A stretch of DNA of 64,000 bases from Chloroflexia bacterium (GCA_034436115.1 DAOTVY010000064.1:21235-85234), one strand, 5' to 3'; numbered from the stretch's first letter, positions 12,391-58,856 are shown. A program made the numbers and translations. Notes: generated from the letters alone by a model not told the origin.

Positions 12391-12416
12391 GGCACAGCCG
12401 AACGAAGGAGGGTTCC

Positions 12417-37323: not shown

Positions 37324-38151
37324 GTGCCGGGATGGAGCGTATGGCGCCTGGCCTGGGGAGCCGTGCTCAGCCTGACGATCGCTGGACTTGCCCGGCGATG
37401 GCGCGCGCTTTCGCGCGATGGCTTTTGGGGGGCGCTGCTGACGGGAACCTTGACCCTGGGGTTTGGCGGTTGGGCCTGGGGGGTGGCGCTGGTCGCCTTT
37501 TTCCTCACCTCGACCGCGCTCACCCGCTGGCACAGGGAAAGCAAAGCGGCATTGGCGCGTTTCGGAGCGAAAGGGGGCGAACGCGACCTTGGCCAGGTCC
37601 TGGCGAACGGAGGGGTGGCGGCTCTGCTTGCCGTGCTTTCGGCCCTGCTTTCGCAGCGGCTGGTTGCGGTCGCCTTTGCCGGGTCCCTTGCCGCAGCCAC
37701 AGCGGATACCTGGGCCACCGAGGTGGGCGTGCTGAGCCGCACGCCACCGCGCCGTATTGTCGACGGCCGCGTGGTGCCTCCCGGGACGTCGGGAGGGGTG
37801 ACCCCGATGGGCTGGCTGGCCGGAGCCGCTGGAGCGCTCTTTCTTCCCGCCTTTTTCTTCCTGCTCGCGCGGGGGGAAGCGGCGCTCGCCGGCCTGCCGG
37901 CCCTGCCGGTGAGGGATGCGCTCCCCGCTGCCCTGGGGGGTGTGGTGGGGATGACCGTCGACAGCCTGCTCGGGGCGACGTTGCAGGGGTGCTATCGTTG
38001 CCCGGCCTGCGGGGAGATGACGGAGCGCCGGGTGCACTGCGGCCGGCCGGCGCTCCGGCAGCGGGGATGGGCGTGGCTGGACAACGACGGGGTCAACCTG
38101 GCGGCCACGATCACCGGCGCCCTGGTCGCAACCGCCTGCGCCTGGGGATGA
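37324..38151 (+). CDS. DUF92 (TMEM19-like) integral membrane protein with C-terminal Cys4 zinc ribbon
   Basis: Hydrophobic. Motifs GGVT.MGWLAG and DSLLGATLQ. C-terminus CYRCPACGEMTERRVHCG. Confidence 0.65.
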   Translation: MPGWSVWRLAWGAVLSLTIAGLARRWRALSRDGFWGALLTGTLTLGFGGWAWGVALVAFFLTSTALTRWHRESKAALARFGAKGGERDLGQVLANGGVAALLAVLSALLSQRLVAVAFAGSLAAATADTWATEVGVLSRTPPRRIVDGRVVPPGTSGGVTPMGWLAGAAGALFLPAFFFLLARGEAALAGLPALPVRDALPAALGGVVGMTVDSLLGATLQGCYRCPACGEMTERRVHCGRPALRQRGWAWLDNDGVNLAATITGALVATACAWG

Positions 38152-38153
38152 GC

Positions 38154-38182
38154 TTGACGAAATTCGTCATTTGTGGTAGACT
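38154..38182 (+). promoter_or_regulatory. Putative hydrogenase-operon promoter TTGACG-17-TAGACT (extended TGg), overlapped by the 15-bp palindrome TGACGAAATTCGTCA (38155-38169)
   Basis: Hexamers with 17-nt spacing. A perfect 7-1-7 palindrome covers the -35 and spacer. Confidence 0.5.
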
Positions 38183-38321
38183 TCACACGGAACAGGGCCT
38201 CAGCGAGGAGGTGGTGTTAGATGGAAGTCCAGGACAATGGTGTCTTGGCAGATGGACACAGTGCTTTCCCGCCGCGGAAAGTAACTGTGGTTTTTTTGTG
38301 AGTCCAGGTTAGGAGGCGATC

Positions 38322-39356
38322 ATGGCCCTTTTTGTTCTGCCCAAGGAACGGGTGGCCGACTGGGTGCGGCAGTTGATGGCCGAGTACGAGGTCGTGGGTC
38401 CAGTGGCGAAGGACGGTGCTTTCGTTTTCGCTCCATTGGAGGGGCCGGAAGCGCTCCGGCTGGACTACCCGATCACCCTGCAGTCGCCCAAGGCGTTCCT
38501 CTTTCCTCCTGAAGAGACGCTGCTGCGCTTCCGCCGTGGCAGCCCTCCGGAGGTCGAGCCGGTGCGCGACGCGCGTCCGCGCGTCCTCTTCGGTGTCCAT
38601 CCCTGCGACTTGAACGCGACCTGGCTGTTGGACCTGGCTTTCTCGCAGGATACGCTGGATACCCCCTATATGGAGCGGCGTGGGCGCACCCTGATCGTCG
38701 GTCTGGACTGCCTGAAGCCGTGCGATGCCCATTCGTTTTGCAAGAGCATGGGGTCGCTTGAGGTGACCGGCGGGTACGATCTCTTCCTGACGGACCTGGG
38801 CGATGCCTACGCGGTCGAGGTGGGCACCGATGCGGGCCAGGCGTTGCTCGAGCGTGCGGAGGGAGCCCAGCCAGCTACGGAGGCGGATATCGCTCGCCTG
38901 AACCTGGTTCTGAGCGAGAAATGGCCCCGCTTCCCCTTGCGGCTCGACCTGGACCCCAAGGACTTGGCGAGCATCATGGAGCTCACCTACGATAGCCCGC
39001 TCTGGGAGGAACTGGCCCAGAAGTGTCTGGGGTGCGGCTCCTGCAACCTGGTCTGCCCGACCTGCTACTGCTTCGACGTTCAGGACCGGCTGGGGCTGGA
39101 CCTGCGCTCGGGCAAGCGGGTACGGCTGTGGGACGGCTGTATGCTGCGCGACTTTGCACGCGTGGCTTCGGGAGAGAACTTTCGCGAGCACCGTTCTGCC
39201 CGCCTACGCCACCGTTTCTACCGCAAGGGGAAGTACCTCCTGGAGGACTATGGGCGCGTCGGGTGTGTGGGCTGCGGACGGTGCGTGCGCGCCTGCCTGG
39301 TGAAGATCGACCCGGTGGAGGTCTTTAACGCCCTGAAGGCTGCCTGCACCGTCTAA
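38322..39356 (+). CDS. hydB: Cytoplasmic [NiFe]-hydrogenase (group 3b/sulfhydrogenase-like) beta subunit, 4Fe-4S protein
   Basis: VLFGVHPCDLNA...CLGCGSCNLVCPTCYCFD...CVGCGRCVRACLVKID. The first gene of a beta-gamma-delta-alpha operon. Confidence 0.7.
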   Translation: MALFVLPKERVADWVRQLMAEYEVVGPVAKDGAFVFAPLEGPEALRLDYPITLQSPKAFLFPPEETLLRFRRGSPPEVEPVRDARPRVLFGVHPCDLNATWLLDLAFSQDTLDTPYMERRGRTLIVGLDCLKPCDAHSFCKSMGSLEVTGGYDLFLTDLGDAYAVEVGTDAGQALLERAEGAQPATEADIARLNLVLSEKWPRFPLRLDLDPKDLASIMELTYDSPLWEELAQKCLGCGSCNLVCPTCYCFDVQDRLGLDLRSGKRVRLWDGCMLRDFARVASGENFREHRSARLRHRFYRKGKYLLEDYGRVGCVGCGRCVRACLVKIDPVEVFNALKAACTV

Positions 39357-39394
39357 GCGGTCGATCGTTAGGCCGGATTGAGGAGGAGCCGACC

Positions 39395-40237
39395 ATGGTC
39401 GAACAAACCCCAACGAGCGGATCGCTGTACCTGCCCCGTATGGCGGAGGTGCTCCGCATCCGGACGCTCACGGAGAAGGAGAAGGTATTCACCCTCCGCC
39501 TGGAACAGGGCCAGTCGCTGGCCCACCAGCCGGGGCAGTTTGTAGAAGTTTCCCTTTTCGGCATCGGCGAGGCCCCGATCTCCGTTTCCTCTTCTCCCAC
39601 GCGCAACGGCACCTTCGAGCTGTGTGTGCGTGCGGTGGGCGATGTGACTAATGCCATGCACCGCCTCCAGGAGGGAGACTGGGTTGGGATTCGGGGGCCT
39701 TTTGGGCACGGCTTTCCGGTGGCCAAGATGCGCGGCAAGGACCTCTTGTTTGCCGCCGGGGGCCTGGGGTTGGCCCCGTTGCGCTCGCTGATCCAGTTTG
39801 TCTTGGATGAGCGGCCGTCCTTCGGGCGGGTGATCATCCTCTACGGCGCGCGCAACCCCGGGGAGCTCCTCTTCCGCGACGAGCTGGAAGAGTGGGCGCA
39901 CCGAAACGACGTGGAGTTCCACCTCACGGTCGACCGCGCGGATGCCTCCTGGACCGGCCACGTCGGCGTGATCACTACCCTCTTCCCGAAGGTCGCGGTG
40001 AATCCCCGGAGCACCGTAGCCGTGACCTGTGGACCGCCGATCATGTACCGGTTCGTGTTGATCGAGCTTTTGGCCAAGGGCCTGCCGGAGAACCAGATCT
40101 ACCTCTCCCTGGAGCGCCGGATGAAGTGTGGGGTCGGGAAATGCGGCCACTGCCAGATCAACGGCGTCTACTGCTGCCAGGAGGGGCCTGTCTTCTCGTA
40201 CGCCCAGGTGAAAGGGCTGAAGGAGGCGATCGGATGA
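39395..40237 (+). CDS. hydG: Hydrogenase gamma subunit: FAD/NAD(P)-binding oxidoreductase with C-terminal [2Fe-2S] (sulfhydrogenase gamma/anaerobic sulfite reductase B-like)
   Basis: Ferredoxin-reductase-type fold (RPSFGRVIILYGARNPGELLF) and C-terminal CGVGKCGHCQINGVYCCQEGPVF. Confidence 0.8.
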   Translation: MVEQTPTSGSLYLPRMAEVLRIRTLTEKEKVFTLRLEQGQSLAHQPGQFVEVSLFGIGEAPISVSSSPTRNGTFELCVRAVGDVTNAMHRLQEGDWVGIRGPFGHGFPVAKMRGKDLLFAAGGLGLAPLRSLIQFVLDERPSFGRVIILYGARNPGELLFRDELEEWAHRNDVEFHLTVDRADASWTGHVGVITTLFPKVAVNPRSTVAVTCGPPIMYRFVLIELLAKGLPENQIYLSLERRMKCGVGKCGHCQINGVYCCQEGPVFSYAQVKGLKEAIG

Positions 40238-41010
40238 AGCCGAAGGTGGCCGTCTTCGAGTTCGGCTGCTGCGAGGGATGCCAGCTGCAGATCGTGAACC
40301 TGGAGGAGGAGCTGCTCGACCTCCTTGGCGTGGTGGAGGTGGTAACGTGGCGGGAAGCGATGAGCGAGCAGTCCGAGACCTTTGACATCGCCCTGGTCGA
40401 AGGCTCGATCACCCGTGAGGAGGAGATCGAGCGGCTGCGCGGCATCCGAGAGCGGGCGAAGGTGCTCGTGGCCATCGGCGCCTGTGCTTGCATCGGTGGC
40501 ATCAACTGCATGAAGAACCGCTTCGACCTGGAAGAGGTTCGTCGCTACGTCTACGGCGAGCACGCCCAATGGTTCGATACCATCGCCACCCGGCCCCTGA
40601 GTGCGGTCGTCCCGGTGGATGCCGAGGTGCCGGGTTGCCCCATCAACCGCCAGGAACTGGTGGAGATCGTCAAAGCCTTGCTCTTGGGGAAGAGGCCGGC
40701 CTTGCCCACTTATGCCGTCTGCGTCGAGTGCAAGCGCCGCAACAACGTGTGCGTCTTTGACCGGGGCCTGGTGTGCCTGGGGCCGGTCACGCGCGCCGGT
40801 TGCAACGCCATCTGCCCCACTTACGGCAACCGCTGCGTCGGCTGCCGGGGGCTGGTGCCCGACCCGAACCTGAACTCCCATCGTGAGGTGCTCGCCCAGC
40901 ATGGCCTTTCTCCGGAGGACATCCTGCGCTTCTTCCACCTGTACGGGGGGTGCCTGCCGGAGATCGGCTGCCTGCAGGGGGCCTTGGAAGCATCTGGAGG
41001 ACGGCCATGA
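40234..41010 (+). CDS. hydD: [NiFe]-hydrogenase small (delta) subunit
   Basis: MKPKVAVFEFGCCEGCQLQIVN, the NuoB/20-kDa-like proximal cluster ligands. ATGA overlap with the gamma gene. Confidence 0.85.
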   Translation: MKPKVAVFEFGCCEGCQLQIVNLEEELLDLLGVVEVVTWREAMSEQSETFDIALVEGSITREEEIERLRGIRERAKVLVAIGACACIGGINCMKNRFDLEEVRRYVYGEHAQWFDTIATRPLSAVVPVDAEVPGCPINRQELVEIVKALLLGKRPALPTYAVCVECKRRNNVCVFDRGLVCLGPVTRAGCNAICPTYGNRCVGCRGLVPDPNLNSHREVLAQHGLSPEDILRFFHLYGGCLPEIGCLQGALEASGGRP

Positions 41011-42308
41011 AGGATGGGACGATCCACGTCCATTACCTGACCCGTGTGGAAGGCCACGGCAACATCCACGTGGAGGTGGAAGGCGGGGCCCTGAAGGCGT
41101 TCCGCTGGGAGATCCCCGAAGCCCCCCGGTTCTTCGAGGCGATGGTCCGAGGACAGAGCTATGCGGACGTGGCCCATATTGTCTCGCGCATCTGCGGCAT
41201 CTGCTCCATTGGACACACCCTCTGCGCCCTGCAGGCGGTCGAGAACGCGCTGGGCGTGAGGCCTTCCGAGCAGACGGTGCTGCTGCGCAAACTGCTCCTC
41301 CACGGGGAGACGGTGCAGAGCCATGTCCTCCACGCGGGCTACCTTGCAGCGCCCGACTTTTTCGGGGTACCCAGCGTGGTCCCTCTGGTGGCCAGCCATC
41401 GCGAGGCCGTGCTCACGATCGTACGGCTCCATCGCCTGGCCAACGAGTGGTGTGACCAGATCGGCGGTCGGACGACACATCCGATCACCCCGGTGGTGAA
41501 CGGGTGGACCCGGCTTCCGACCCCCGAGGAGCTGGCCAACCTGCGTGCGCGCATCGAGGCCGGGATGGCCGACGCCTGGGCATTGGTGGAGATCTTTCGC
41601 ACGCTTGACATCCCCGATTTTCAGCGTCCTACCGAGTACATTGCCCTGAAACACCCCGAGGAGTATGCGTTCTACGAGGGAGTCATCGCTTCCACCGACG
41701 GCGACACGACCGCCGTGCCGGATTACCGGCAAAAAGTGCACGAGTTCGTTGTGCCGTATTCCACCTCGAAGCGAGCCCGGGCGAACCGCAACTCCTTTGC
41801 TGTGGGAGCCCTGGCGCGTTTCAACAACAACGCCGAGCAGCTTTCCCCCCAGGCGAAAAAGGCTGCAGAAGCGCTCGGGCTGCGTCCGATTTGCACCAAC
41901 CCGTTTCTGAACACCGTGGCTCAGGTGGTGGAAGTCGTGCATGCGCTGGAAGATAGCCTGCGCTTGATCGACCTGCTCCTGGCACGCGGGATCGAGCCGG
42001 AGGTACCTTGGGTGCAGGTGCGCGCAGGCCGGGGTGTGGGGGCGGTCGAGGTGCCCCGGGGCATCCTGTTCCACGAGTATACCCTGGACGAGACCGGGCA
42101 CGTGGTGGACGCGAACATGATCATCCCCACCGGCCAGAACCATCAGAATATCGAGGACGACATGGCCGTCCTGATCCCGCAGATCCTGGACCGGCCGGAG
42201 GAGGAGATCCGCCTGCGTCTGGAGATGCTCGTGCGCGCCTACGACCCCTGCATCTCCTGTTCCACCCACCTGCTGCACCTGGAGCTACGCGGAGGAAAAT
42301 CGCGGTGA
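41007..42308 (+). CDS. hydA: [NiFe]-hydrogenase large (alpha) subunit
   Basis: N-terminal RICGICSIGHTLCA (L1 CxxC) and C-terminal DPCISCSTHLLH (L2 DPCxxC). ATGA overlap with the small subunit. Confidence 0.9.
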   Translation: MKDGTIHVHYLTRVEGHGNIHVEVEGGALKAFRWEIPEAPRFFEAMVRGQSYADVAHIVSRICGICSIGHTLCALQAVENALGVRPSEQTVLLRKLLLHGETVQSHVLHAGYLAAPDFFGVPSVVPLVASHREAVLTIVRLHRLANEWCDQIGGRTTHPITPVVNGWTRLPTPEELANLRARIEAGMADAWALVEIFRTLDIPDFQRPTEYIALKHPEEYAFYEGVIASTDGDTTAVPDYRQKVHEFVVPYSTSKRARANRNSFAVGALARFNNNAEQLSPQAKKAAEALGLRPICTNPFLNTVAQVVEVVHALEDSLRLIDLLLARGIEPEVPWVQVRAGRGVGAVEVPRGILFHEYTLDETGHVVDANMIIPTGQNHQNIEDDMAVLIPQILDRPEEEIRLRLEMLVRAYDPCISCSTHLLHLELRGGKSR

Positions 42309-42799
42309 CGGACCGGCGACGTGCCCCGGTGCTCGTCCTGGGCCTGGGGAATCCCTACTGGGGCGACGATGGCGTAGGGCAGGCGGCGTTGGAAGCGCTC
42401 TCCCGCCGATCGTTGCCCCCTGGGGTGGAAATACGCGATGGCGGCACTGGCGGCCTGCTCCTCCTGGATGTGATCGCCGACCGCGAACACCTGCTGGTGA
42501 TCGACGCCGCCGATTTCGGCGAGGCACCGGGCACGGTTCGTGACTTTTCGCCAGAGGAGGCTGGCCTCTGTCGCGCCGATCGGCCCCTTTCGTTCCACCA
42601 GGCGGGGCTGGCCGAAGTGCTGGATCTTGCGCGCAAGCTCGGCATGGCTCCCCGGAACGTGCACTTATGGGTCGTCCAGCCGGGCCGGTTGGGCCCGGGA
42701 CGTGGGTTGAGTGACCCGGTCCAGGCAGCCCTGCCTGGGTTGGTGGATTCGGTGTGCCGCGCGCTCGGGGCGTTGCTTCCCGAGGCGGCGCGCGTTTGA
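42305..42799 (+). CDS. Hydrogenase maturation endopeptidase (HycI/HoxW family)
   Basis: VLVLGLGNPYWGDDGVGQAA...LLVIDAADFG. A GTG start overlaps the large-subunit stop (GTGA). Confidence 0.8.
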   Translation: MTDRRRAPVLVLGLGNPYWGDDGVGQAALEALSRRSLPPGVEIRDGGTGGLLLLDVIADREHLLVIDAADFGEAPGTVRDFSPEEAGLCRADRPLSFHQAGLAEVLDLARKLGMAPRNVHLWVVQPGRLGPGRGLSDPVQAALPGLVDSVCRALGALLPEAARV

Positions 42800-42811
42800 G
42801 GAGGATAGCCG

Positions 42812-43216
42812 ATGCCAAAGAAGATCCTCGTGGTGGATGACGACCCGGACACGGTCGAAGTGATCCGCCTGACCCTGGAGAGCGCAGGCTATGAGGTAGT
42901 CAGCGCAGCGAGCGGGGAGGAAGGGCTGCGTCGGGTGGTGCAGGAAAAGCCGGACCTCATCATCCTGGACGTGATGATGGATACCACGACCGAGGGGTTC
43001 CACGTTAGCCTGCAGCTGCGGAGCCCTGACCCGGCCTCGCCCTACGCCGATTTCCGGCAGATCCCCATCCTGATGCTCACCGCGATCCACACGACCACGC
43101 CGCTGCGCTTTGCTCCGGATGCGGACTACCTGCCGGTGGACGAATTTGTGGAAAAGCCGATCGCCCCGGAGGCGCTTCTCGCCAAGGTAGAGGCGCTGCT
43201 TGCGGGGAAGAAGTGA
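42812..43216 (+). CDS. Stand-alone response-regulator receiver (CheY-like) protein
   Basis: KILVVDDDPDTVEVIRLTL...DLIILDVMMD...KPI. No output domain. Confidence 0.8.
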   Translation: MPKKILVVDDDPDTVEVIRLTLESAGYEVVSAASGEEGLRRVVQEKPDLIILDVMMDTTTEGFHVSLQLRSPDPASPYADFRQIPILMLTAIHTTTPLRFAPDADYLPVDEFVEKPIAPEALLAKVEALLAGKK

Positions 43217-43697
43217 GGCACGAGCTTTGGGCAAGATCCAGATCGGCGGCATCCTGCAATTTCGGGATCTGGCCTTGATCCAAGTGCTGGGGCTTCCGCA
43301 GAGCGCAGCCGTGGCCACGTTGTTGCGAGCGCTGGGCGACCGCGGGATCCCGGCTCAGGCGGTCGTCCAGTGCCAGGAATCGGGCGGCCGCTACGCCTTG
43401 GCCTTCACCGTGGCCGAGGTGCACCGTGAGGAAGCCCGGGCGATCGTGGAAGAGCTGGCCCGCCGCGGCGGTGCGTGCGAGGTGACCGTGCGCTCGCCGG
43501 TCGGGATGGTGGCCGTCTTCGGGCCCCATTTCCGGGATCGGCCGGCGATCGCAGGTACGATGTTCAGCGCCCTGGTTGCAGCCGAGGTGGAGGTGTTGGC
43601 CATCAGCACCTCGATCTCGACCGTGGCCGGTGTCGTTGTCGCCGAGGAGATGGACCGCGCGGTCGCCATCCTGCGGGCGACGTTTGAGCTCCCATAG
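43200..43697 (+). CDS. Stand-alone ACT-domain protein (aspartokinase regulatory-domain-like)
   Basis: Two ACT-like segments (GKIQIGGILQ...; VGMVAVFGPHFRDRPAIAGTMFSALVAAEVEVLAISTSISTVAGVV). The start codon is uncertain and overlaps the upstream gene end. Confidence 0.55.
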   Translation: MRGRSEARALGKIQIGGILQFRDLALIQVLGLPQSAAVATLLRALGDRGIPAQAVVQCQESGGRYALAFTVAEVHREEARAIVEELARRGGACEVTVRSPVGMVAVFGPHFRDRPAIAGTMFSALVAAEVEVLAISTSISTVAGVVVAEEMDRAVAILRATFELP

Positions 43698-43789: not shown

Positions 43790-44362
43790 ATGGTGGAGAA
43801 TCCTCTACTCCGGCTAGATCTGCGCCACAAATCCCTGGCGCAGGCGATCCTGCGCCGGCTCCAGGTGGATGTGCGCGCGTGCTACCAGTGTGGGCGCTGT
43901 ACCGCCGGCTGCCCGGTGGCATATGCGATGGACGCAGGCCCGCACCAGATCCTGCGCGGCATCCAGCTGGAACTGCACGACTGGGTGCTCAGCCGCAATA
44001 CCTACTGGATTTGCGCCAGTTGCGTGACTTGCACCACCCGCTGCCCCTGCGAGGTGGATGTCGCCCGGGTGATGGACGGCCTGCGCGAGCTGGCGCTGCA
44101 GGAAGGCATTCGCCCTTCGGAGCAGACGGTCAAGGTGTTCCACCAGGTGTTCCTGGAGTGGGTGCGCCTGACCGGCCGGATGTACGAGGCGGGCCTGGTG
44201 GGGCTCTACAACCTGCGTTCGCGCGAGTTCCTGGCCAGCGCAGACCTCGTCCTTCCGATGCTGACCCATAACAAGGTCCCCCTCCTGCCCCGGCGTTATC
44301 CTGCCCAGGCGGAGGTCGAGCGCATCTTCGAGCGTGCGCGTGCCCTGGAGGAGAAGCGATGA
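43790..44362 (+). CDS. hdrC: Heterodisulfide reductase subunit C-like (two 4Fe-4S clusters)
   Basis: CYQCGRCTAGCP and CASCVTCTTRCP. ATG after GGAGG. Confidence 0.85.
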   Translation: MVENPLLRLDLRHKSLAQAILRRLQVDVRACYQCGRCTAGCPVAYAMDAGPHQILRGIQLELHDWVLSRNTYWICASCVTCTTRCPCEVDVARVMDGLRELALQEGIRPSEQTVKVFHQVFLEWVRLTGRMYEAGLVGLYNLRSREFLASADLVLPMLTHNKVPLLPRRYPAQAEVERIFERARALEEKR

Positions 44363-45237
44363 CCCGTTACGGCTACTACCCTGGCTGTTCCCTGGAGGGG
44401 ACGGCACGCGAGTACGATGTGTCGACGCGCATTGCCTGCCAGGAGCTGGGGATCGAACTTGTGGAGTTGGAGGGGTGGAGCTGTTGCGGGGCCTCTTCGG
44501 CTCACGCGACCCGTTACTGGCTCTCGCTTGCGCTGCCTGCCCGGAACCTCCGCCTGGCCCAGGAGCAGGGTTTTTCCGCCCTTGTGGCTCCCTGCGCCAT
44601 GTGCTATGCCCGGTTGCGCCATACGCAGCATGCCCTGCGGGATCCCGCGGTACGGGAGCAGGTGAACAGCCTCCTCGATCGGCCCTTGCAGGATGCTGAG
44701 GTCAAGGTGCATTCGCTGGTCGACCTCTTCTCGGAAGAAGAGCGGCTGAACCTGTTGCGCAGCAAGGTGCAGCGCGACCTTTCGGGGCTGCGGCTGGCCT
44801 GCTACTACGGATGTCTGCTCGTGCGGCCCCCGGAGGTTCTGGAGCCGGATGACCCGGAGTACCCCACCATGCTCGACCGGATCGTCGAGGCTGCCGGCGC
44901 TACCGTGGTCGATTGGCCGCTGAAGACAGAGTGCTGCGGGGGTAGCCTGTCCCTGTCCCGCACGGACATCGCGCTCGAGCTCACGCGTCGTCTGCTCGAG
45001 GATGCCCTGTGCCGTGGGGCCAACGGCATCGTCACCGCCTGCCCGATGTGTCACGCGAACCTGGACATGCGGCAGCAGCAGATCAACCGACGGTACGGCA
45101 CCCAACTGGACCTGCCGATCCTTTACTTCACCCAGCTTGTGGGGTTGGCAACCGGACACGCCCCGAAGGAGCTGCTCCTGCACCATCATCTGGTCGAACC
45201 CTGGTCGCTTCTCGCCCAGGCCGGCATTCCGGCATAG
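44359..45237 (+). CDS. hdrB: Heterodisulfide reductase subunit B-like (two CCG domains)
   Basis: YYPGCSL...CCGAS...CAMC and YYGCLLVRP...CCGGS...CPMC. Confidence 0.9.
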   Translation: MTRYGYYPGCSLEGTAREYDVSTRIACQELGIELVELEGWSCCGASSAHATRYWLSLALPARNLRLAQEQGFSALVAPCAMCYARLRHTQHALRDPAVREQVNSLLDRPLQDAEVKVHSLVDLFSEEERLNLLRSKVQRDLSGLRLACYYGCLLVRPPEVLEPDDPEYPTMLDRIVEAAGATVVDWPLKTECCGGSLSLSRTDIALELTRRLLEDALCRGANGIVTACPMCHANLDMRQQQINRRYGTQLDLPILYFTQLVGLATGHAPKELLLHHHLVEPWSLLAQAGIPA

Positions 45238-45255
45238 GGCATGGGAGGTCGTTCG

Positions 45256-47283
45256 ATGGCCCGAGTCGGCGTTTTCGTCTGCCATTGCGGAAGCAACATC
45301 GCGGCGACGGTGGATGTGGCCAAGGTGGCCGAAGAAGCGGTCAAGATGGACCACGTCGTGTATGCCACGCACTACGTGTACATGTGCTCTACCCCGGGGC
45401 AGGAGTTGATCCAGCAAAAGATCCAGGAGTACCAGCTGGACCGGGTAGTGGTGGCGGCCTGTAGCCCGCGGATGCACGAGCGCACCTTCCGCAAGGCCAC
45501 CGCTCAGGGAGGGCTGAACCCCTACCTGATGGAACAGGCGAACATTCGGGAACACGATTCGTGGGTGCATGCGGACATCCCGGTGGCCACGGAGAAGGCG
45601 ATCGAGATCGTGCGCATGGCGGTGGCCAAGGCGGTGGGGCTGGCCCCCCTGGAAGCGGCCCAGGTGGGGATCACGAAGCGCTGCCTGGTGATTGGCGGCG
45701 GCATCGCCGGGGTGCAGGCGGCGCTGGATGTGGCCGAGGCCGGGTATGAGGTGGTGATCGTCGAACGCGAGCCCTCGCTGGGCGGGCATATGGCCCAATT
45801 GGACAAGACCTTCCCCACCCTGGACTGCTCAGCCTGTATCCTCACACCAAAGCTTGTCGACGCGGCCCAACACCCCAAGATCAAACTCTATACCTATTCC
45901 GAGGTAGTCGGCGTCAAGGGCTTTGTGGGGAATTTTCAGGTGACCATCCGGCGCAAGCCCCGTTACGTGGACGAAAAGCTCTGCACCGGGTGCGGCATCT
46001 GCTGGAACAGCTGCCCGCTGCGCCCGCGGGTGCAGGAGGACGGCACGGTCAAGGGCGGCTTCCCTTCCAAGTTCGAGGCCAACCTGGGCCGCCGGGCGGC
46101 CATCTATGTGCCCTTTGCCCAGGCGGTGCCGCTCGTGCCGGTGATCGATACGGAGCACTGCACCTGGTTCGTGAAGGGGGGCAAGTGCGGGCTCTGCGCG
46201 CAAAAGTGCCCACGGGGTGCGGTCAACTATACCCAGAGCGAGGAATTGATCACCGAGCCCTTTGGGGCAATCATCGTTGCCACCGGATTCGACCTGTTCG
46301 ACGCGCGGGCCCTAGGCGAGTACGGCTACGGACGGTACCCGGATGTGATCACGGGCCTGGAACTGGAACGGTTGATGAACGCTTCCGGGCCGACGCACGG
46401 CCACGTCCTGCGCCCTTCCGACGGCCGGCCGCCGAAGACGGTGGTGCTCGTCTCGTGCGTGGGCTCGCGCGATGAGAAGATCGGCCGGCCGTACTGCTCG
46501 GTCGTCTGCTGCATGTACCTGGCCAAGCACGCCATCATGCTCAAAGAGCACGACCCCGAGGTCGAGGTCTATAACTTTTACATGGACATCCGCGCCGGTG
46601 GCAAGGACTATGACGAGTTCACGCGCCGCGCGATCGAGCAGTACGGTGCCCACTACCTGCGCGGACGCGTCTCCCAGGTCTACGAGCGGGATGGGAAGTT
46701 GATCGTCGAGGGAGTGGACACGCTGATCGGCCGGCCGGTGGAGATCCAGGCCGATCTGGTGGTGCTCGCCACCGGCATCACTGCCCCTGAGGGGGCACGC
46801 GAGCTCTTCCAGACGCTGAACATCTCCTATAACCAGTACGCCTTCATCAACGAGGCCCATCCGAAGCTCCAGCCGGTCGAGACGAACACCGACGGGATCC
46901 TCCTGGCTGGTTGCGCGACTGGCCCCAAGGATATCCCCGCTACCGTGGCCCAGGCGAGCGGGGCTGCTGCCAAGGCGATCGGCATCCTTTCCAAGGAGAC
47001 GCTGATCGCCAACCCGATGGTCGCGGAGGTGAACGAGCGCGAGTGCGTGGCCTGCCAGCTGTGTGTCCAGGTGTGCCCCTATCGCGCGATCGAGATGACC
47101 ACCACCCGGCGCGGTAAACCGGTGGCCCACGTGAACCCCAGCGTCTGTAAGGGTTGTGGTCTCTGCGTGAACGCCTGCCGCGGTGGGGCGATCAACCTGA
47201 AAGGCTTTACCGATCAGCAGCTGGTCAGCCAGGTGAGCGCTCTCCTCGCCGAACCACTGGCCGAGGTCCTGGACGAGCGCTGA
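45256..47283 (+). CDS. hdrA: Heterodisulfide reductase subunit A-like flavoprotein (FAD + multiple Fe-S)
   Basis: CLVIGGGIAGVQAALDVAEAGYEVVIVE dinucleotide fold. Several CxxCxxC(P) ferredoxin motifs and an N-terminal CHCG...C cluster. Confidence 0.9.
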   Translation: MARVGVFVCHCGSNIAATVDVAKVAEEAVKMDHVVYATHYVYMCSTPGQELIQQKIQEYQLDRVVVAACSPRMHERTFRKATAQGGLNPYLMEQANIREHDSWVHADIPVATEKAIEIVRMAVAKAVGLAPLEAAQVGITKRCLVIGGGIAGVQAALDVAEAGYEVVIVEREPSLGGHMAQLDKTFPTLDCSACILTPKLVDAAQHPKIKLYTYSEVVGVKGFVGNFQVTIRRKPRYVDEKLCTGCGICWNSCPLRPRVQEDGTVKGGFPSKFEANLGRRAAIYVPFAQAVPLVPVIDTEHCTWFVKGGKCGLCAQKCPRGAVNYTQSEELITEPFGAIIVATGFDLFDARALGEYGYGRYPDVITGLELERLMNASGPTHGHVLRPSDGRPPKTVVLVSCVGSRDEKIGRPYCSVVCCMYLAKHAIMLKEHDPEVEVYNFYMDIRAGGKDYDEFTRRAIEQYGAHYLRGRVSQVYERDGKLIVEGVDTLIGRPVEIQADLVVLATGITAPEGARELFQTLNISYNQYAFINEAHPKLQPVETNTDGILLAGCATGPKDIPATVAQASGAAAKAIGILSKETLIANPMVAEVNERECVACQLCVQVCPYRAIEMTTTRRGKPVAHVNPSVCKGCGLCVNACRGGAINLKGFTDQQLVSQVSALLAEPLAEVLDER

Positions 47284-47298
47284 TTTCGGGAGGACAAG

Positions 47299-47733
47299 AT
47301 GTCCGAACCGTTCGAACCCCGGATCGTCGGATTCCTGTGCAACTGGTGCTCCTACGCGGGCGCCGACCTGGCGGGCACCTCTCGTATCCCTTACCCGCCG
47401 AACATCCGTATCATCCGCGTACCCTGTTCCGGCCGGGTGGACCCGATGCTGGCCATGAAGGCCTTCCTGGAGGGGGCGGACGGGGTGATCGTCCTGGGCT
47501 GCCATCCAGGCGACTGCCACTATAGCGAAGGCAACTACCACGCCCGCCGGCGGCTGGTCCTCTTCCACCGCCTGCTCGAGTTTTTCGGCGTCGAGCGCGA
47601 TCGTTTCCGCCTGGACTGGGTGTCCGCCTCCGAGGGGGTTCGTTTCGCCCAGGTCGTGGGCGAGTTTACCGAGGCGGTGCGGCGGTTGGGGCCGCGGCGC
47701 CGGCCCGAGGCCGTTCTCGAAGGGTCGCGATGA
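47299..47733 (+). CDS. mvhD: MvhD/FlxD-type [2Fe-2S] electron-transfer subunit
   Basis: IVGFLCNWCSYAGADLAG...RVPCSGRVDP...VLGCHPGDCHY. Confidence 0.85.
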   Translation: MSEPFEPRIVGFLCNWCSYAGADLAGTSRIPYPPNIRIIRVPCSGRVDPMLAMKAFLEGADGVIVLGCHPGDCHYSEGNYHARRRLVLFHRLLEFFGVERDRFRLDWVSASEGVRFAQVVGEFTEAVRRLGPRRRPEAVLEGSR

Positions 47734-48146
47734 GCGTGGTACGTTCGGGGCCGGGTTGTCTGCTTCAGTTTCTATGGTTCGTCTTCGTGGGCTGGTGGCT
47801 TGGGTTTATCTGGGTCGCCATTGCCTGGTTGCTGAACTTGACCCTCATCGGGCTGCCGTTGGGGGTGTGGATGCTCAACCGCATCCCCCAGGTGATGTTG
47901 CTGAGGGATGAGCCTTGCCTGACCACGGTCGTACGGGCCCCGGACGGAAGCCTCGTCCTGCGGCAGAGCGAGCTGCCGCAGCGTCCCTGGTGGCTGCGTG
48001 CCCTATGGTTTCTCCTGATTGGCTGGTGGCTTTCCTTGTTGTGGCTCCTAATGGCCTGGTTGCTTTGCGGGACCATAATCCTTCTGCCGCTGGGGATGGC
48101 GATGTTCGATCGCGTTCCGGCGGTGGTTTCGCTGCGTCGAACCTAG
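47730..48146 (+). CDS. YccF-like (DUF307) inner-membrane protein
   Basis: Two repeats with GWWLGFIW...LIGLPLG and GWWLSLLW...ILLPLGM. Confidence 0.7.
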   Translation: MSVVRSGPGCLLQFLWFVFVGWWLGFIWVAIAWLLNLTLIGLPLGVWMLNRIPQVMLLRDEPCLTTVVRAPDGSLVLRQSELPQRPWWLRALWFLLIGWWLSLLWLLMAWLLCGTIILLPLGMAMFDRVPAVVSLRRT

Positions 48147-49016
48147 TTGCCCGGCGGCATGGACCGAGACAGGAGGCTGTGCTTGAGCACGAGCGATGAC
48201 ATCCGTCGCGTTGCACGAGAACTGCTGGAAAAAGGGGAGGTGGCGCGCATCTACGGGTATGCGGAGGGCCGGCGGGGCCAGGTGCGCCCCTTTATCGCCC
48301 GTACGCCCGCGGAGGCGGAACGCCTTCTCTTCGATCGAAGGTGTGTCCACAACCTGGCCCTCTATCTCCTGGACCTGAAGGCAGAGGGCGCCGAGGCGCC
48401 CCGCGTGGGCGTGGTCATGAAGCCGTGCGATGCGCGCGCGCTGAACGTGCTGGTGCTGGAGCACCAGCTCGACCGTGCCCAGGTGCATGTGATCGGCGTG
48501 CCCTGCAACGGTGTGGAGGGAAAACGCGCCTGTGGAACGTGCCCAGACCGCACCCCGCCGACCTACGATACTCTCGTTGGCGAGGTGCCGACGGAAGAAC
48601 CCGGCCAGGCAGCGGAGGACGAACTCGCCCGTCTGCTCGCCCTCCCTCCCGAGGAGCGCCGGCGCTTCTGGGCGGAGCAGTTCGCGCGCTGCATCCGGTG
48701 TTACGCTTGCCGGCAGGTCTGCCCGATGTGTTACTGCGAGGTCTGCATCGCCGAGAAACTCGACCCGCCCTGGGAGAGCATCGCCATTGCCCCGTCGGAG
48801 AACGAGTTTTACCACGTGTTGCGGGGCTACCACCTGATCGGGCGCTGCATCGAGTGCGGCGAATGTGAACGGGTGTGCCCGATGGGCATCCCGGTGTTTC
48901 TCTACCAGCGTTATCTGGCGGAGGAAGTGCGCCGAACCTTCGATTTCCGACCCGGTATGGATGCGGAGACGCTGGCGCCGTTCATGACGTTCCGCAAGGA
49001 GGAACTGGAAGGGTAA
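48147..49016 (+). CDS. FrhB/FdhB-like iron-sulfur (flavo)protein, FlxB-like
   Basis: VVMKPCDARALNVLVLE...VIGVPCNG N-terminal domain, plus CIRCYACRQVCPMCYC and CIECGECERVCPMG. Confidence 0.6.
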   Translation: MPGGMDRDRRLCLSTSDDIRRVARELLEKGEVARIYGYAEGRRGQVRPFIARTPAEAERLLFDRRCVHNLALYLLDLKAEGAEAPRVGVVMKPCDARALNVLVLEHQLDRAQVHVIGVPCNGVEGKRACGTCPDRTPPTYDTLVGEVPTEEPGQAAEDELARLLALPPEERRRFWAEQFARCIRCYACRQVCPMCYCEVCIAEKLDPPWESIAIAPSENEFYHVLRGYHLIGRCIECGECERVCPMGIPVFLYQRYLAEEVRRTFDFRPGMDAETLAPFMTFRKEELEG

Positions 49017-49042
49017 ACCTTCCGTTCGGTCGAGGTGTTTCG

Positions 49043-50086
49043 ATGCCCCAACGGCTGCTGAACCCCGAAGAACTGCTTGCATGGGTGGACCGCTTGCTCC
49101 CGGGCTACCGGGTCGTGGCTCCGGTGCGGGAGGGCGAGGGACGGTTCTTCCTTCGCCCGATCGGAGGCGCCCAGGAGATGGACCTTTCGGTGACCCGGAC
49201 GGTAAACAGCCTCAAGGAGTACTTCTTCCCCCCCACGGAGGCGATCGTGCAGATCCGCCGCGGGAAGACGGCGGTGCGCCTGGAGGTGCCCGTTCCGGAA
49301 GAGCGGCAGCTCCTCTTTGCCGTCCGCCCCTGCGATGCCGCCGCGTTGGCCTCTATGGACGCGCTTTTCCTGGGGGATCCGGCCGACCCCTACTATGGCG
49401 CGCGCCGCCGGCAGAGCGTGCTCGTGGGGCTGGCCTGTTTGGAAGTACCCACGCCCGAGTGCTTCTGCACGACCACCGGCGGCTCGCCCATCGGGACGGC
49501 AAACCTGGACCTGATCCTCTACCGGGTACCCGAGGGGTACATCGTGGAGGCTCTGACCCCGCGGGGGGAGGAGCTGTTCCAGGAGGCCTCCGGCCGACCG
49601 GTCGAGCCACCCTTCCGCCCCCAGGCGCCGGGGCTTCCGGCCTATCCTTGCCCGCCCCAGGAGGACTGGATCCGCGTCTTCACCGATCCCCTGTGGGAAG
49701 AGCTAGGCGAGCGTTGCCTGGGATGCAAGATCTGTACCTACGTCTGCCCGACCTGCTACTGCTTCGACATCCGCGACCGGGGGGCCGGGGGACGGGTCGA
49801 GCGCCTGCGTGCCTGGGATGCCTGCACTTCCAAGCACTACTCCGTCGAAGCCAGCGGCCACGACCCGCGGCCGACGCGGGGGACGCGGCTTCGCAACCGT
49901 TTCTGTCACAAATACTACTACTTCCCGTGGCGCTACCAGGGTACCCTCCTTTGCTCGGGATGCGGCCGCTGTGTGGCGGCCTGTCCGGTGAACATCGACC
50001 TGACGGAAGTCCTGGAAGAAGTGGCTACCCGATCCCGGGTGGATCGCTCAAGCGGGCGCAACCAAGCACAGGGATTGGACCATTAG
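49043..50086 (+). CDS. 4Fe-4S protein paralogous to hydrogenase beta subunit (FlxC-like)
   Basis: FAVRPCDAAAL...CLGCKICTYVCPTCYCFD...CSGCGRCVAACPVNID, with domain order matching the 38322 gene. Confidence 0.7.
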   Translation: MPQRLLNPEELLAWVDRLLPGYRVVAPVREGEGRFFLRPIGGAQEMDLSVTRTVNSLKEYFFPPTEAIVQIRRGKTAVRLEVPVPEERQLLFAVRPCDAAALASMDALFLGDPADPYYGARRRQSVLVGLACLEVPTPECFCTTTGGSPIGTANLDLILYRVPEGYIVEALTPRGEELFQEASGRPVEPPFRPQAPGLPAYPCPPQEDWIRVFTDPLWEELGERCLGCKICTYVCPTCYCFDIRDRGAGGRVERLRAWDACTSKHYSVEASGHDPRPTRGTRLRNRFCHKYYYFPWRYQGTLLCSGCGRCVAACPVNIDLTEVLEEVATRSRVDRSSGRNQAQGLDH

Positions 50087-50121
50087 GACAAAAAGGTGCC
50101 TGGCAGAGGGGAGGTGGTCCG

Positions 50122-50511
50122 GTGACCACTCGTGCGCAAGACTGGCTCCGTCAGGCCGTACGGGATCTGGAGCACGCCATCGACTCGCAGGGGTTGGGGC
50201 GACACGAATGGGCCTGCTTTGCCGCACATCAGGCCGCCGAAAAGGCCGTGAAGGCCCTCCATTTGCACCATGGTCAGGAGGCCTGGGGGCACCTGGTGGC
50301 CAGGCTCCTTCGAGAGTTGCCCGGGGCGGTCATAGTTCCTGCGATGCTCGTCGAGCAGGCTCGCGTGCTGGATACGTTTTACATCCCCACCCGCTATCCC
50401 AACAGCCATCCGGAGGGGCCGCCCTTCGAGCATTATGGCCCTCTGCAGAGCGAGGAGGCGATCCGTTATGCCCGTGCGATCGTTGAGTTCGTCCGTTCTC
50501 AAATGGCCTGA
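50122..50511 (+). CDS. HEPN-domain protein (putative toxin of a HEPN/MNT pair)
   Basis: A GTG start follows GGGGAGGTGG. Rx4H motif in TRYPNSH. An all-helical ~129-aa protein. Confidence 0.7.
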   Translation: MTTRAQDWLRQAVRDLEHAIDSQGLGRHEWACFAAHQAAEKAVKALHLHHGQEAWGHLVARLLRELPGAVIVPAMLVEQARVLDTFYIPTRYPNSHPEGPPFEHYGPLQSEEAIRYARAIVEFVRSQMA

Positions 50512-50860
50512 TGCCCGGGAGGTCGTGGCCGCGGTACAGCGTTGGGCGGAGCGTAAAGCCCGGGAACACCCGGAGGTCGTGCGGATCGGGTACCTGGGTT
50601 CTTACGCGCGCGGCGATTGGGGTGTCGGCAGCGATGTGGATCTGCTGATCCTTGTCGAGCATTCTGGTGTTCCCTTCGAAGGCCGCGGTGCCCAATGGGC
50701 ACCGGACGAACTACCCGTTCCGGCCGACGTGCTGGTCTATACGCTGGCCGAGTGGCAATCCCTTCCCCGGGAGGGGCGGTTCTATCGCACCGTGATGCGC
50801 GAGGCGGTGTGGGTTTGGGAGCGCGGCACCGGAGAATCCCGGGGGCAACCCGAGGAGTGA
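50468..50860 (+). CDS. Minimal nucleotidyltransferase (MNT; putative antitoxin partner of HEPN)
   Basis: GSYARGDWGVGSDVDLLIL is the GS-x9-DxD polymerase-beta-like NTase motif. It overlaps the HEPN gene 3' end. Confidence 0.7.
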   Translation: MPVRSLSSSVLKWPDAREVVAAVQRWAERKAREHPEVVRIGYLGSYARGDWGVGSDVDLLILVEHSGVPFEGRGAQWAPDELPVPADVLVYTLAEWQSLPREGRFYRTVMREAVWVWERGTGESRGQPEE

Positions 50861-50876
50861 ACAAGGAGCATACCCG

Positions 50877-51707
50877 ATGTCCAATCCGTTCTTGCCCTTT
50901 GTCGGTACCCTGACTGAAGTGCGTGACCTGGCGCTCGGCATCCGGTTGCTGCGGGTGCGGCTGGAGGACGAGGCCGGCCGGGCGGCCTTTGCGGACTATC
51001 GGCCGGGGCAGTTCGCCTTCCTTTCCGCCTTTGGCGTGGGCGAAGTGCCCTTTGGGTTGGCATCGACGCCGGCGCGGAGCGCGGAATTGGAGTTTGCTGT
51101 CGCCCGCGTGGGCACGGTGACCTCTGCCCTGCACAACCTGGAGGTAGGGGCGCCGGTGGGCGTGCGCGGGCCTATGGGCAACTCCTTCCCGATGGAGGAG
51201 TTCCGCGGCCGGAACCTGGTGATCATCGGCGGGGGCATCGGTTTTGCACCGCTTCGCCCGGTGATCCAGTACGCGCTCGACCACCGCGCCGACTACGGCC
51301 ACCTCACCATCCTGGCCGCGGCCCGCGCCCCCAACCTCCTGGTGTTCCGCGAGGAGTACGAAGAGTGGGCCTCGGCGCCCGATACCGAGTTGCACGTGAC
51401 CGTGGACGTGGGGGACGAGACCTGGACGGGGAACGTAGGCCTGGTAACCGAACTGCAGGCCAAGGTGGCTCCGTCGCCGGATAACGCCATCGCGATCACC
51501 TGTGGCCCGCCGATCATGATCAAGTTTGTGGTACAGCTGTTGCAGAAGCAGGGATTTGCCCCGGAGCAGATCTACACCACGCTCGAGATGAAGATGAAGT
51601 GCGGCCTGGGGAAATGTGGCCGCTGTAACATCGGCGAGCGCTACGTCTGTGTGGACGGGCCGGTCTTTAGCCACGCCCAGATCCTGCAGTTCATCGATTC
51701 CTTCTAG
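50877..51707 (+). CDS. FAD/NAD(P)-binding oxidoreductase with C-terminal [2Fe-2S], paralog of hydrogenase gamma (FlxA-like)
   Basis: Same architecture as the 39395 gene. The C-terminus is CGLGKCGRCNIGERYVCVDGPVF. Confidence 0.8.
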   Translation: MSNPFLPFVGTLTEVRDLALGIRLLRVRLEDEAGRAAFADYRPGQFAFLSAFGVGEVPFGLASTPARSAELEFAVARVGTVTSALHNLEVGAPVGVRGPMGNSFPMEEFRGRNLVIIGGGIGFAPLRPVIQYALDHRADYGHLTILAAARAPNLLVFREEYEEWASAPDTELHVTVDVGDETWTGNVGLVTELQAKVAPSPDNAIAITCGPPIMIKFVVQLLQKQGFAPEQIYTTLEMKMKCGLGKCGRCNIGERYVCVDGPVFSHAQILQFIDSF

Positions 51708-58791: not shown

Positions 58792-58820
58792 TTGACAAAT
58801 GTCCCGGATTGTGCTATGAT
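58792..58820 (+). promoter_or_regulatory. Promoter TTGACA-17-TATGAT for the HdrD-like operon
   Basis: Consensus hexamers. Flanked and overlapped by direct repeats TTGTCCCAGGATT / ATGTCCCGGATT. Confidence 0.55.
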
Positions 58821-58856
58821 TCTCGATGTGGCCACGGAGCTGGCGAGGCGGGGGGC

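Follow-up and report, generated by a model that had tools for sequence, protein, structure and literature searches.

The DNA analysed here, a stretch of 64 kb referred to below as the window, comes from an uncultured Chloroflexia bacterium and carries at 43790-51707 ten genes on the plus strand, all of them confirmed by Pfam and NCBIfam searches; the interval extends exactly from the first start codon to the last stop codon (Table 1). An earlier description of the window, made by a model and called the sequence-only reading in the following, had listed the same ten genes. They are tightly packed, with a spacing of -4 to 36 nt; the hdrB start, for instance, overlaps the hdrC stop by 4 nt. Co-transcription of the ten genes is predicted; terminator-like sites and internal promoters occurred across the cluster in numbers no higher than chance, and an Rfam scan of the whole 64-kb window gave no match.

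Table 1. Genes of the hdr-flx region, with positions counted from the first letter of the window.
Gene	Predicted product	Position	Strand	Supporting match or motif
hdrC	2x[4Fe-4S] subunit of a heterodisulfide-reductase-like module	43790..44362	+	Fer4_8/Fer4_17 matches; two 4Fe-4S motifs
hdrB	Subunit with putative disulfide-reducing site	44359..45237	+	PF02754 CCG x2, E 2e-24
hdrA	FAD and Fe-S protein, putative bifurcating flavoprotein	45241..47283 (start possibly 45256)	+	GGGIAG FAD motif; Fer4 domains inserted and C-terminal
flxD (mvhD)	[2Fe-2S] connector subunit	47299..47733	+	PF02662 FlpD, E 4e-54, full domain
yccF	Small inner-membrane protein, two YccF/DUF307 repeats	47730..48146	+	PF03733, 43.5 bits (cut-off 27)
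flxC	Truncated FdhB/ElpB-like poly-[4Fe-4S] protein	48183..49016 (alternative starts 48147 or 48159)	+	Fer4 matches
flxB	HydB/AsrA-like 4Fe-4S subunit	49043..50086	+	Fer4_22, E 4e-28
HEPN gene	Putative toxin	50122..50511	+	PF05168, E 3e-30
MNT gene	Minimal nucleotidyltransferase, putative antitoxin	50525..50860 (alternative start 50468)	+	PF01909 NTP_transf_2
flxA	FAD/NAD(P)-binding [2Fe-2S] flavoprotein, putative NAD(P)H entry point	50877..51707	+	NAD_binding_1 and DHODB_Fe-S_bind

All seven core proteins have the expected domains in Pfam and NCBIfam. The FAD and Fe-S domains of HdrA, the two CCG domains of HdrB, where both C...CCG...CxxC motifs are legible in the translation, and the two [4Fe-4S] clusters of HdrC are those of an HdrABC-type module. 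The top NCBIfam match of HdrC is the HdrC model, and HdrA scores 830 and 590 bits against the HdrA2 and HdrA models, respectively; all NCBIfam Hdr matches, these included (the HdrA2 cut-off is 1100 bits), lie under the curated cut-offs because the models were trained on methanogen enzymes. HdrA is 83-91% identical to its counterparts in sister Chloroflexia loci. FlxB gives sub-threshold matches to sulfhydrogenase beta and AsrA, while FlxA combines a weak FAD_binding_6 match with the motifs GGGIGFAP and C-x4-C-x2-C...C in its translation. The dN/dS values of the core genes against the sister loci are 0.07-0.29.

Gene order and identity of the cluster

Apart from two inserts, the genes follow the order hdrC-hdrB-hdrA-flxD-flxC-flxB-flxA on one strand, with hdrC as the first of the seven, and this order has been published under the name hdrCBA-flxDCBA (PMC12125255). 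The same seven-gene order was found in 73 of the 162 fetched loci, that is, on every contig long enough to hold all seven genes; of the remaining loci, 23 represent a variant without hdrB and the others are cut by contig ends, most of them showing the order in part. It spans Bacillota, Actinomycetota, Thermodesulfobacteriota, Nitrospirota, Bacteroidota and Chloroflexota and was found for instance in Moorella, Eggerthella, Desulfosporosinus and Syntrophomonas; for the last of these a full cluster has been reported, and our Syntrophomonas locus (L076) shows the same order. The sequence-only reading had proposed a Flx-Hdr-type cluster, which is borne out by the domains and the canonical order, but its statement that the genes stand in a different order from that of known clusters is incorrect. 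Its label flxB-like for the FdhB-like gene also has to be changed, since by position this gene is flxC. The subunits are accordingly named as follows: MvhD is FlxD, the 277-aa Fe-S protein is FlxC, the HydB-like protein is FlxB and the HydG-like protein is FlxA. Among the loci flxD always stands in the order hdrA-flxD-flxC, and fusion proteins of MvhD and FlxC are known (P0026 and P0036).

It is in our view likely that the region is an orthologous copy, in this uncultured Chloroflexia bacterium, of the hdrCBA-flxDCBA operon for the FlxABCD-HdrABC complex. The same seven genes, with the same order and domain content, are known from Desulfovibrio/Nitratidesulfovibrio vulgaris, Bilophila wadsworthia, Syntrophomonas and others, from which the window differs in its Chloroflexia MAG host, in having yccF between flxD and flxC and a HEPN-MNT pair between flxB and flxA, and in the absence of an adjacent alcohol dehydrogenase gene; in three genomes the genes of a group 3b hydrogenase adjoin the cluster on its upstream side. 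That the proteins are orthologous to those studied genetically in D. vulgaris Hildenborough may be surmised from the synteny shared with many taxa, Syntrophomonas among them. A Desulfovibrionaceae MAG locus (L044) was dropped as canonical Desulfovibrio reference, as it is a non-canonical variant with an HdrD-like protein, EtfBA and HdrA-FlxDCBA, and in L031, the second of the two Desulfovibrio-labelled loci retrieved, hdrC and hdrB were not detected either.

FlxC and the predicted electron path

The proposal of the sequence-only reading that FlxC is an FrhB/FdhB-like Fe-S protein is supported by its AlphaFold model (pLDDT 84.6, pTM 0.84), for which the top Foldseek matches are FdhB (7bkb_E; E 2.5e-14, TM 0.78 on the query and 0.54 on the target) and ElpB (8rvu_E), followed by FrhB-family proteins. 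Such a fold, and the fact that the fused HdrA2 model gives the best alignment to HdrA and MvhD, could be taken to mean that FlxC is the true entry site and works like its counterparts in the methanogen Elp-Hdr and HdrA2B2C2 systems, taking electrons from F420H2 to FAD, with FlxA and FlxB as accessory proteins. We regard this as very unlikely. With 277 aa FlxC lacks some 100-130 residues relative to FdhB and ElpB (380-411 aa), which is also reflected in the two TM values, and its sequence similarity is limited to residues 158-273, which align with the C-terminal ferredoxin domain of FdhB in phmmer. In Pfam the FrhB_FdhB_C match is sub-threshold and covers 38 residues only, and FrhB_FdhB_N was unmatched. 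Furthermore, HdrA and MvhD are encoded by separate genes here, the HdrA2 score of HdrA stays under its cut-off, and the NAD(P)-binding flavoprotein FlxA accompanies FlxC in every locus extending far enough. FlxC probably lacks a flavin, and 16 of its cysteines are invariant among 35 homologs.

Electrons in the solved Hdr complexes run along the Fe-S chain of the FdhB and ElpB subunits to MvhD and the flavin of HdrA (PMC12350162). The methanogen complexes FdhAB-MvhD-HdrABC (7BKB) and ElpABC-HdrABC (8RVU) have the HdrABC core and the MvhD connector in common with the window, and their FdhB/ElpB fold is that predicted for FlxC; the window differs from them in its truncated FlxC, in a HydG/HydB-like NAD(P)H module that would serve as donor in place of formate or F420H2, and in a substrate other than CoM-S-S-CoB.

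For an assembled FlxABCD-HdrABC complex of this composition, we propose an electron path of the same logic as that put forward for the known Flx-Hdr systems. NAD(P)H would be oxidised at the FAD of the HydG-like, [2Fe-2S]-containing FlxA, from where the 4Fe-4S clusters of FlxB and of the truncated FlxC may carry electrons to the [2Fe-2S] cluster of FlxD and on to the HdrA flavin. There the pair would be split, with one electron going to ferredoxin and the other, via HdrC and the CCG clusters of HdrB, to a disulfide. Confurcation, with electrons running the opposite way, is just as possible. For Desulfovibrio, DsrC has been proposed as the disulfide substrate; within the 64-kb window no candidate for a DsrC/TusE-like disulfide carrier was identified. 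The role assigned to the cluster in the literature is NADH oxidation coupled to the reduction of ferredoxin and DsrC (PMC12125255; PMC6687939). The predicted FdhB/ElpB-like fold of FlxC ties the donor arm of the bacterial Flx proteins to the solved donor arms of the methanogen Hdr complexes, and thereby gives a concrete electron path that can be tested. To our knowledge, no in vitro reconstitution of Flx-Hdr bifurcation has been achieved; this includes the Desulfovibrio system, whose assigned function is based on genetics and physiology.

The upstream hydrogenase

Directly upstream of hdrC, at a distance of 1.5 kb and on the same strand, lie the genes of a group 3b [NiFe]-hydrogenase (hyhBGSL-hycI) together with a response regulator and an ACT-domain gene. 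The beta and gamma genes of this cluster (hyhB, 38322-39356, and hyhG, 39395-40237) belong to the same superfamily as flxB and flxA, and the sequence-only reading had described the Flx modules as duplicated 10 kb upstream and suggested module sharing between hydrogenase and Hdr complex. Paralogs are indeed present there, but a recent copying is not compatible with the identities, which are just 36% for FlxB/HyhB and 46% for FlxA/HyhG.

FlxB and FlxA are full-length homologs of the beta subunit and the NADPH-binding gamma subunit of P. furiosus SHI, the solved relative used for comparison (9NEZ). Against SHI beta (9nez_B) FlxB scores 154 bits and HyhB of the window 200 bits, and against SHI gamma (9nez_C) the values are 196 bits for FlxA and 230 bits for HyhG. 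The reverse is found with profiles built from Flx loci of other phyla, where the Flx copies outscore the Hyh copies (312 bits for FlxB and 289 for HyhB). A phylogeny of the two paralogous pairs had been proposed as a check. The neighbour-joining tree for gamma groups HyhG with Pfu HydG (99/100 bootstrap) and FlxA with Chloroflexia FlxA (100/100); the beta tree was not decisive (44/100). No hydrogenase large or small subunit gene lies inside the flx cluster, and FlxB and FlxA are linked to Hdr and not to such subunits, so that the genes at 49043-50086 and 50877-51707 do not qualify as group 3b beta and gamma genes of the HyhBG/SHI type. We conclude that the hydrogenase beta/gamma genes and the flx copies are old paralogs and not shared modules; identities, reciprocal scores and gamma bootstrap values led us to reject both a recent beta/gamma duplication and sharing.

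These data also bear on the possibility that the hydrogenase and Flx-Hdr form one H2-dependent bifurcating machine with exchanged beta and gamma subunits, for which the adjacency, recurring in L003 and L004, and the common superfamily might be invoked. We consider it highly unlikely. Each of the two clusters encodes its own complete beta/gamma pair, which makes sharing unneeded, and the pairs are as divergent as described above, set apart by the reciprocal scores and by the clade of HyhG and Pfu HydG. Adjacency is restricted to the window, L003 and L004 and was rejected as a general feature; it is absent in L005 and L170, and a Hyh gene was detected in none of the remaining related loci. Moreover, metabolic coupling through the free NAD(P)H pool would require no physical link.

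The yccF and HEPN-MNT insertions

The sequence-only reading regarded the cluster as interrupted by foreign-looking genes, which holds for the HEPN-MNT pair and not for yccF. Throughout one Chloroflexia subclade the yccF gene separates flxD from flxC, with 63-79% identity (at the same position in L005, L084, L085, L170 and L171); it is ancestral in this clade on the concatenated tree and has been lost from two sister genomes. Its dN/dS of 0.16-0.32 is similar to that of FlxB, and its ATG overlaps the flxD stop (ATGA). The two PF03733 repeats place the protein in the YccF/DUF307 family, which the NCBIfam YccF models also match, under their cut-offs; homologs at up to 60% identity are stand-alone genes elsewhere. 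The gene is therefore an old, conserved operon member in this clade that is under purifying selection and derives from a resident Chloroflexota yccF family. A resident gene was captured between flxD and flxC early in the clade and then kept by selection. One may speculate, although we find it rather unlikely, that YccF is an eighth subunit by which the Flx-Hdr complex, in itself soluble, is tethered to the membrane or gated there, and that together with the neighbouring group 3b hydrogenase a route from H2 via NAD(P)H to ferredoxin results. If true, the clade would have a bifurcating Hdr of a membrane-associated type, and the route would be functionally equivalent to Mvh-Hdr of methanogens.

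The HEPN-MNT pair is mobile and entered the flxB-flxA spacer recently. A close relative (L171) has the empty site with the same flanks and identical downstream synteny, and the pair is absent from 160 other loci, L171 among them. The GC3 of the HEPN gene is 0.72 as compared to 0.80-0.85 in the flx, hdr and hyh genes, and that of the cassette is about 0.10 under its neighbours. The HEPN family is widely mobile, comprising more than 6000 proteins that are 75-83% identical across phyla. The protein in the window has an R-x4-H motif (RYPNSH), and GGGAGG lies 4-5 nt upstream of the GTG of the MNT gene at 50525. Adjacent small genes for a HEPN protein and a minimal nucleotidyltransferase (PF05168 and PF01909) at variable sites are typical of HEPN-MNT toxin-antitoxin modules, and sizes and order match those in toxin-antitoxin islands of sister MAGs, such as that of L003, where the same HEPN-MNT order (129 and 103 aa) occurs; the pair in the window differs in being lodged inside a bioenergetic operon. 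A search for transposon-like ends around the pair (target-site duplications and terminal repeats) gave only short repeats at chance level, and PADLOC found no defence model for HEPN or YccF and only weak PDC-S09 matches for MNT.

The cassette breaks the overlap of flxB and flxA seen in L003 and could have altered flxA expression. This replacement of an L003-type translational coupling, and a C-terminal tail of FlxB that is unlike those of relatives, would fit a decaying operon that the two insertions have uncoupled or inactivated on its way to loss. Such decay is, however, very hard to reconcile with ten intact reading frames, conserved cysteines and cofactor motifs, and dN/dS values well under 1 for yccF and every core gene. 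The strong AAGGAG Shine-Dalgarno site of flxA is retained and identical to that of the uninterrupted relative L171, and the same arrangement was seen on two independent metagenome contigs. An intact operon remains our reading, in which HEPN-MNT arrived recently and left every reading frame, as well as the ribosome-binding site of flxA, undamaged.

Overall, the current understanding of Hdr systems is unchanged by our data, whose main outcome is the canonical gene order and the absence of shared modules. Among open-access papers mentioning Chloroflexi, FlxABCD and hydrogenase, no report of Flx-Hdr in Chloroflexia was found in titles and abstracts, and the known Flx-Hdr cluster is here extended to uncultured members of this class. 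In at least three lineages the flxB/flxA junction is occupied by small genes that differ between them, and this core bioenergetic operon tolerates small insertions both there and at the flxD/flxC junction.

Gene content and order of the operon

The ten genes of the region are co-directional and closely packed on a chromosomal stretch with 65% GC (window value). The nearest genomes are MAGs labelled Chloroflexia bacterium, and two JGI metagenome contigs carry proteins identical to those of the window. Each item in the gene list of the sequence-only reading was matched by Pfam and NCBIfam, which together with the hyh cluster present upstream confirms that observation, and its core identification of a Flx-Hdr-type cluster stands.

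The claim that the genes follow a different order is, on the other hand, wrong. With the 277-aa Fe-S protein (FlxC) as query, 80 genome and 80 metagenome loci were retrieved, and the window proteins were placed on them by tblastn. The order HdrC-HdrB-HdrA-MvhD-X-HydB'-HydG' was found in all loci long enough to show every gene (73/73), and most of the shorter contigs show a truncated version of the same order. This arrangement, present in Moorella, Syntrophomonas, Desulfosporosinus, Eggerthella, Coriobacteriia, Nitrospirota, Thermodesulfobacteriota, Bacteroidota and Dehalococcoidia, is the published hdrCBA-flxDCBA operon, whose product is a flavin oxidoreductase with a heterodisulfide reductase (PMC12125255); the full cluster has been reported for Syntrophomonas (PMC6687939). 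By position MvhD is FlxD, X is FlxC, HydB' is FlxB and HydG' is FlxA, so that the FdhB-like gene previously called flxB-like is flxC. The operon of this region is canonical Flx-Hdr; what is new is the host lineage.

A variant cluster was observed in the related locus L044, where a fused HdrD-like Fer4+CCG protein, EtfB and EtfA stand in place of hdrC/hdrB, followed by hdrA-flxDCBA and adjoining a beta-oxidation gene. Its tblastn pattern recurs in 22 other loci and, since hdrC/hdrB are swapped, the HdrA-FlxDCBA donor arm appears to join different acceptor modules.

Features of the window and of related loci; domain assignments from HdrC to FlxA are those supported by Pfam and NCBIfam
Feature	Locus	Position	Strand	Content
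Flx-Hdr operon	window	43790-51707		
HdrC	window			2x4Fe-4S
HdrB	window			two CCG domains
HdrA	window			FAD + Fer4 domains
MvhD/FlpD (FlxD)	window			E 4e-54
YccF	window			membrane protein
FlxC	window			277-aa Fe-S protein, weak FrhB_FdhB_C signal
FlxB	window			HydB/AsrA-like, Fer4_22
HEPN-MNT	window			HEPN protein + minimal nucleotidyltransferase
FlxA	window			HydG/AsrB-like; FAD, NAD, [2Fe-2S] domains
hyhBGSL-hycI	window	38322-42799	+	complete group 3b [NiFe]-hydrogenase cluster, upstream of hdrC
Hydrogenase block	window	38322-43697	+	hyhB, hyhG, hyhS, hyhL, hycI protease, stand-alone receiver-domain gene, ACT-domain gene; adjoins hdrC
326-aa ORF	window	37332-38312	+	directly upstream of hyhB
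Promoter-like site	window	38154-38182		
Terminator-like hairpin	window	38262-38291		
Sensor histidine kinase	window	57036-58754	+	
HdrD-like	window	58809-60209		second Hdr-like set
HdrC2	window	60292-60879		second Hdr-like set
HdrB2	window	60876-61754		second Hdr-like set
RACo-type activator + two pterin-binding genes	window	31331-33235, 4167-5450, 12387-13346	+, -, +	reductive activator of corrinoid proteins; MeTr/DHPS-like
Variant cluster	L044	2441-10842		
Toxin-antitoxin island	L163	69-4051		
flxB-flxA gap	L170	11355-11801		
flxB-flxA gap	L099	7858-8232		

The donor arm and FlxC

FlxA and FlxB match over their full length the gamma and beta subunits in the solved structure of P. furiosus sulfhydrogenase I (9nez_C, 196 bits; 9nez_B, 154 bits). 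The sequence similarity of FlxC is limited to the C-terminal 2x[4Fe-4S] domain of FdhB from Hdr supercomplexes, and its 16 invariant Cys are sufficient for four clusters. An AlphaFold model from 35 homologs (pLDDT 84.6, pTM 0.84) matches FdhB (7bkb_E; E 2.5e-14, TM 0.78 on query, 0.54 on target) and also ElpB (8rvu_E), so that FlxC is, judged from its predicted fold, a truncated FdhB/ElpB-type protein. It is ~100-130 residues shorter than FdhB/ElpB and gave no significant match to the FrhB N- or C-domains, for which reason we think that it has probably lost the FAD/F420 site. This counts against the reading in which the FlxC-containing complex would depend on F420H2.

In the passage of PMC12125255 that cites Ramos et al. 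2015, FlxABCD-HdrABC oxidises NADH and the electrons are proposed to be bifurcated to ferredoxin and DsrC. In the Fdh-Hdr and Elp-Hdr structures, the Fe-S chain of the FdhB/ElpB subunit feeds the [2Fe-2S] cluster of MvhD/ElpC and the HdrA flavin at which bifurcation takes place (PMC12350162). Two natural fusions, P0026 (446 aa) and P0036 (473 aa), in which an MvhD/FlpD domain is joined to a FlxC homolog with 47-52% identity to that of the window, support a direct FlxD-FlxC contact. The sulfhydrogenase matches, the FdhB/ElpB-like FlxC, the solved chains and these fusions support by homology a path in which electrons would pass from FlxA to FlxB, FlxC, FlxD and HdrA. The proposed mechanism as a whole is taken over, on grounds of homology, from Desulfovibrio genetics and methanogen Hdr structures.

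The adjoining hydrogenase and neighbouring genes

The hydrogenase block lies next to Flx-Hdr in the window and in the related loci L003 and L004; L005 and L170 lack it, and none of the remaining fetched loci showed a Hyh gene. Module sharing between the two systems, as proposed earlier, is not borne out. FlxA and HyhG are 46% identical and FlxB and HyhB 36%; the Hyh proteins score higher against the P. furiosus subunits (HyhG 230, HyhB 200 bits), and the Flx proteins score higher against HMMs built solely from Flx loci outside Chloroflexota (FlxA 346 vs HyhG 311 bits; FlxB 312 vs HyhB 289 bits). Each cluster has its own complete beta/gamma pair. In NJ trees the FlxA and FlxB of the window each cluster with Flx proteins from Chloroflexia (100/100), and HyhG falls with P. 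furiosus HydG (99/100); the corresponding beta grouping of Hyh with P. furiosus was weak (44/100). The pairs are old paralogs, and nothing points to shared subunits. Metabolic coupling of Flx-Hdr and Hyh through NAD(P)H is possible and speculative.

The 326-aa ORF has no Pfam match, and the promoter-like site and terminator-like hairpin lie near its 3' end. The N-terminal domain of the histidine kinase is GcvH-like (PF01597, E 1e-24), has EAEQ in place of the lipoyl-lysine motif ESVK, and is fused to GAF-HisKA-HATPase. The kinase is encoded directly upstream of the second Hdr-like set, which is without HdrA. In L171, a locus of a close relative, the regulator block that follows flxA is conserved as far as the kinase start; L171 then breaks off inside the kinase gene. 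The RACo and pterin-binding genes hint at corrinoid-dependent methyl transfer or at Wood-Ljungdahl-type metabolism, the latter of which would use up reduced ferredoxin.

yccF and the HEPN-MNT pair

Both extra elements had been described as foreign-looking; yccF is not foreign. Its start overlaps the flxD stop codon (ATGA), it holds the same position in L005, L084, L085, L170 and L171, and ~21 clusters of YccF homologs (63-79% identity) parallel, in the lengths of their contigs, the closest FlxC homologs. In the concatenated FlxD/C/B/A tree the deepest branches are among yccF-bearing loci, and L003 and L004 are without the gene while L084, sister of L004 (99.5% support), has it; it follows that the ancestor of the clade had yccF and that L003/L004 lost it later. 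With this history, a dN/dS of 0.16-0.32 against three relatives (similar to the FlxB range), a normal GC3 of 0.79, and homologs of <=60% identity that are stand-alone genes without Hdr context in other Chloroflexota, yccF is a resident gene captured by the operon and kept. A role of YccF as membrane tether of Flx-Hdr is speculative, and we consider it rather unlikely that a YccF-associated, membrane-linked Flx-Hdr acts downstream of the adjoining NAD(P)-linked hydrogenase.

For the HEPN-MNT pair the foreign origin holds. Among 162 loci it occurs solely in the window's population; L171, which has yccF and the same downstream regulators, has an uninterrupted flxB-flxA spacer of 98 bp and shares with the window the Shine-Dalgarno context AAGGAGCATAC before flxA, and flxB of L003 runs with its stop codon into the start codon of flxA. 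The GC3 of the pair is 0.71-0.72 vs 0.80-0.85 in flx, hdr and hyh genes, and the HEPN family comprises >6000 proteins, which share 75-83% identity between Chloroflexota, Rokubacteria and other groups. In other lineages different small genes occupy this junction, namely a Zn-ribbon/DUF4190 membrane protein gene in L170 and in L099 a 124-aa ORF which, judged from its sequence, may be read as a 23S-rRNA-IVP-type four-helix-bundle protein; genes seem to land at this junction repeatedly. The pair itself showed no flanking repeats. Given the uninterrupted spacer, low GC3, mobile family and other occupants, the cassette is a mobile element that inserted recently into a permissive spacer.

The MAG of L003 has the same HEPN->MNT pair at another place, within an island of small, selfish-type toxin-antitoxin genes (L163: 23S rRNA IVP protein, HEPN->MNT, HicB-like/HicA pair, Polbeta/HepT-like genes) adjoining polysaccharide-biosynthesis genes, which indicates dense seeding of these Chloroflexia genomes with toxin-antitoxin cassettes. 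Overall, the Flx-Hdr operon here carries one clade-specific retained extra gene, yccF, and one strain-specific selfish insertion, HEPN-MNT, despite which all reading frames are intact.
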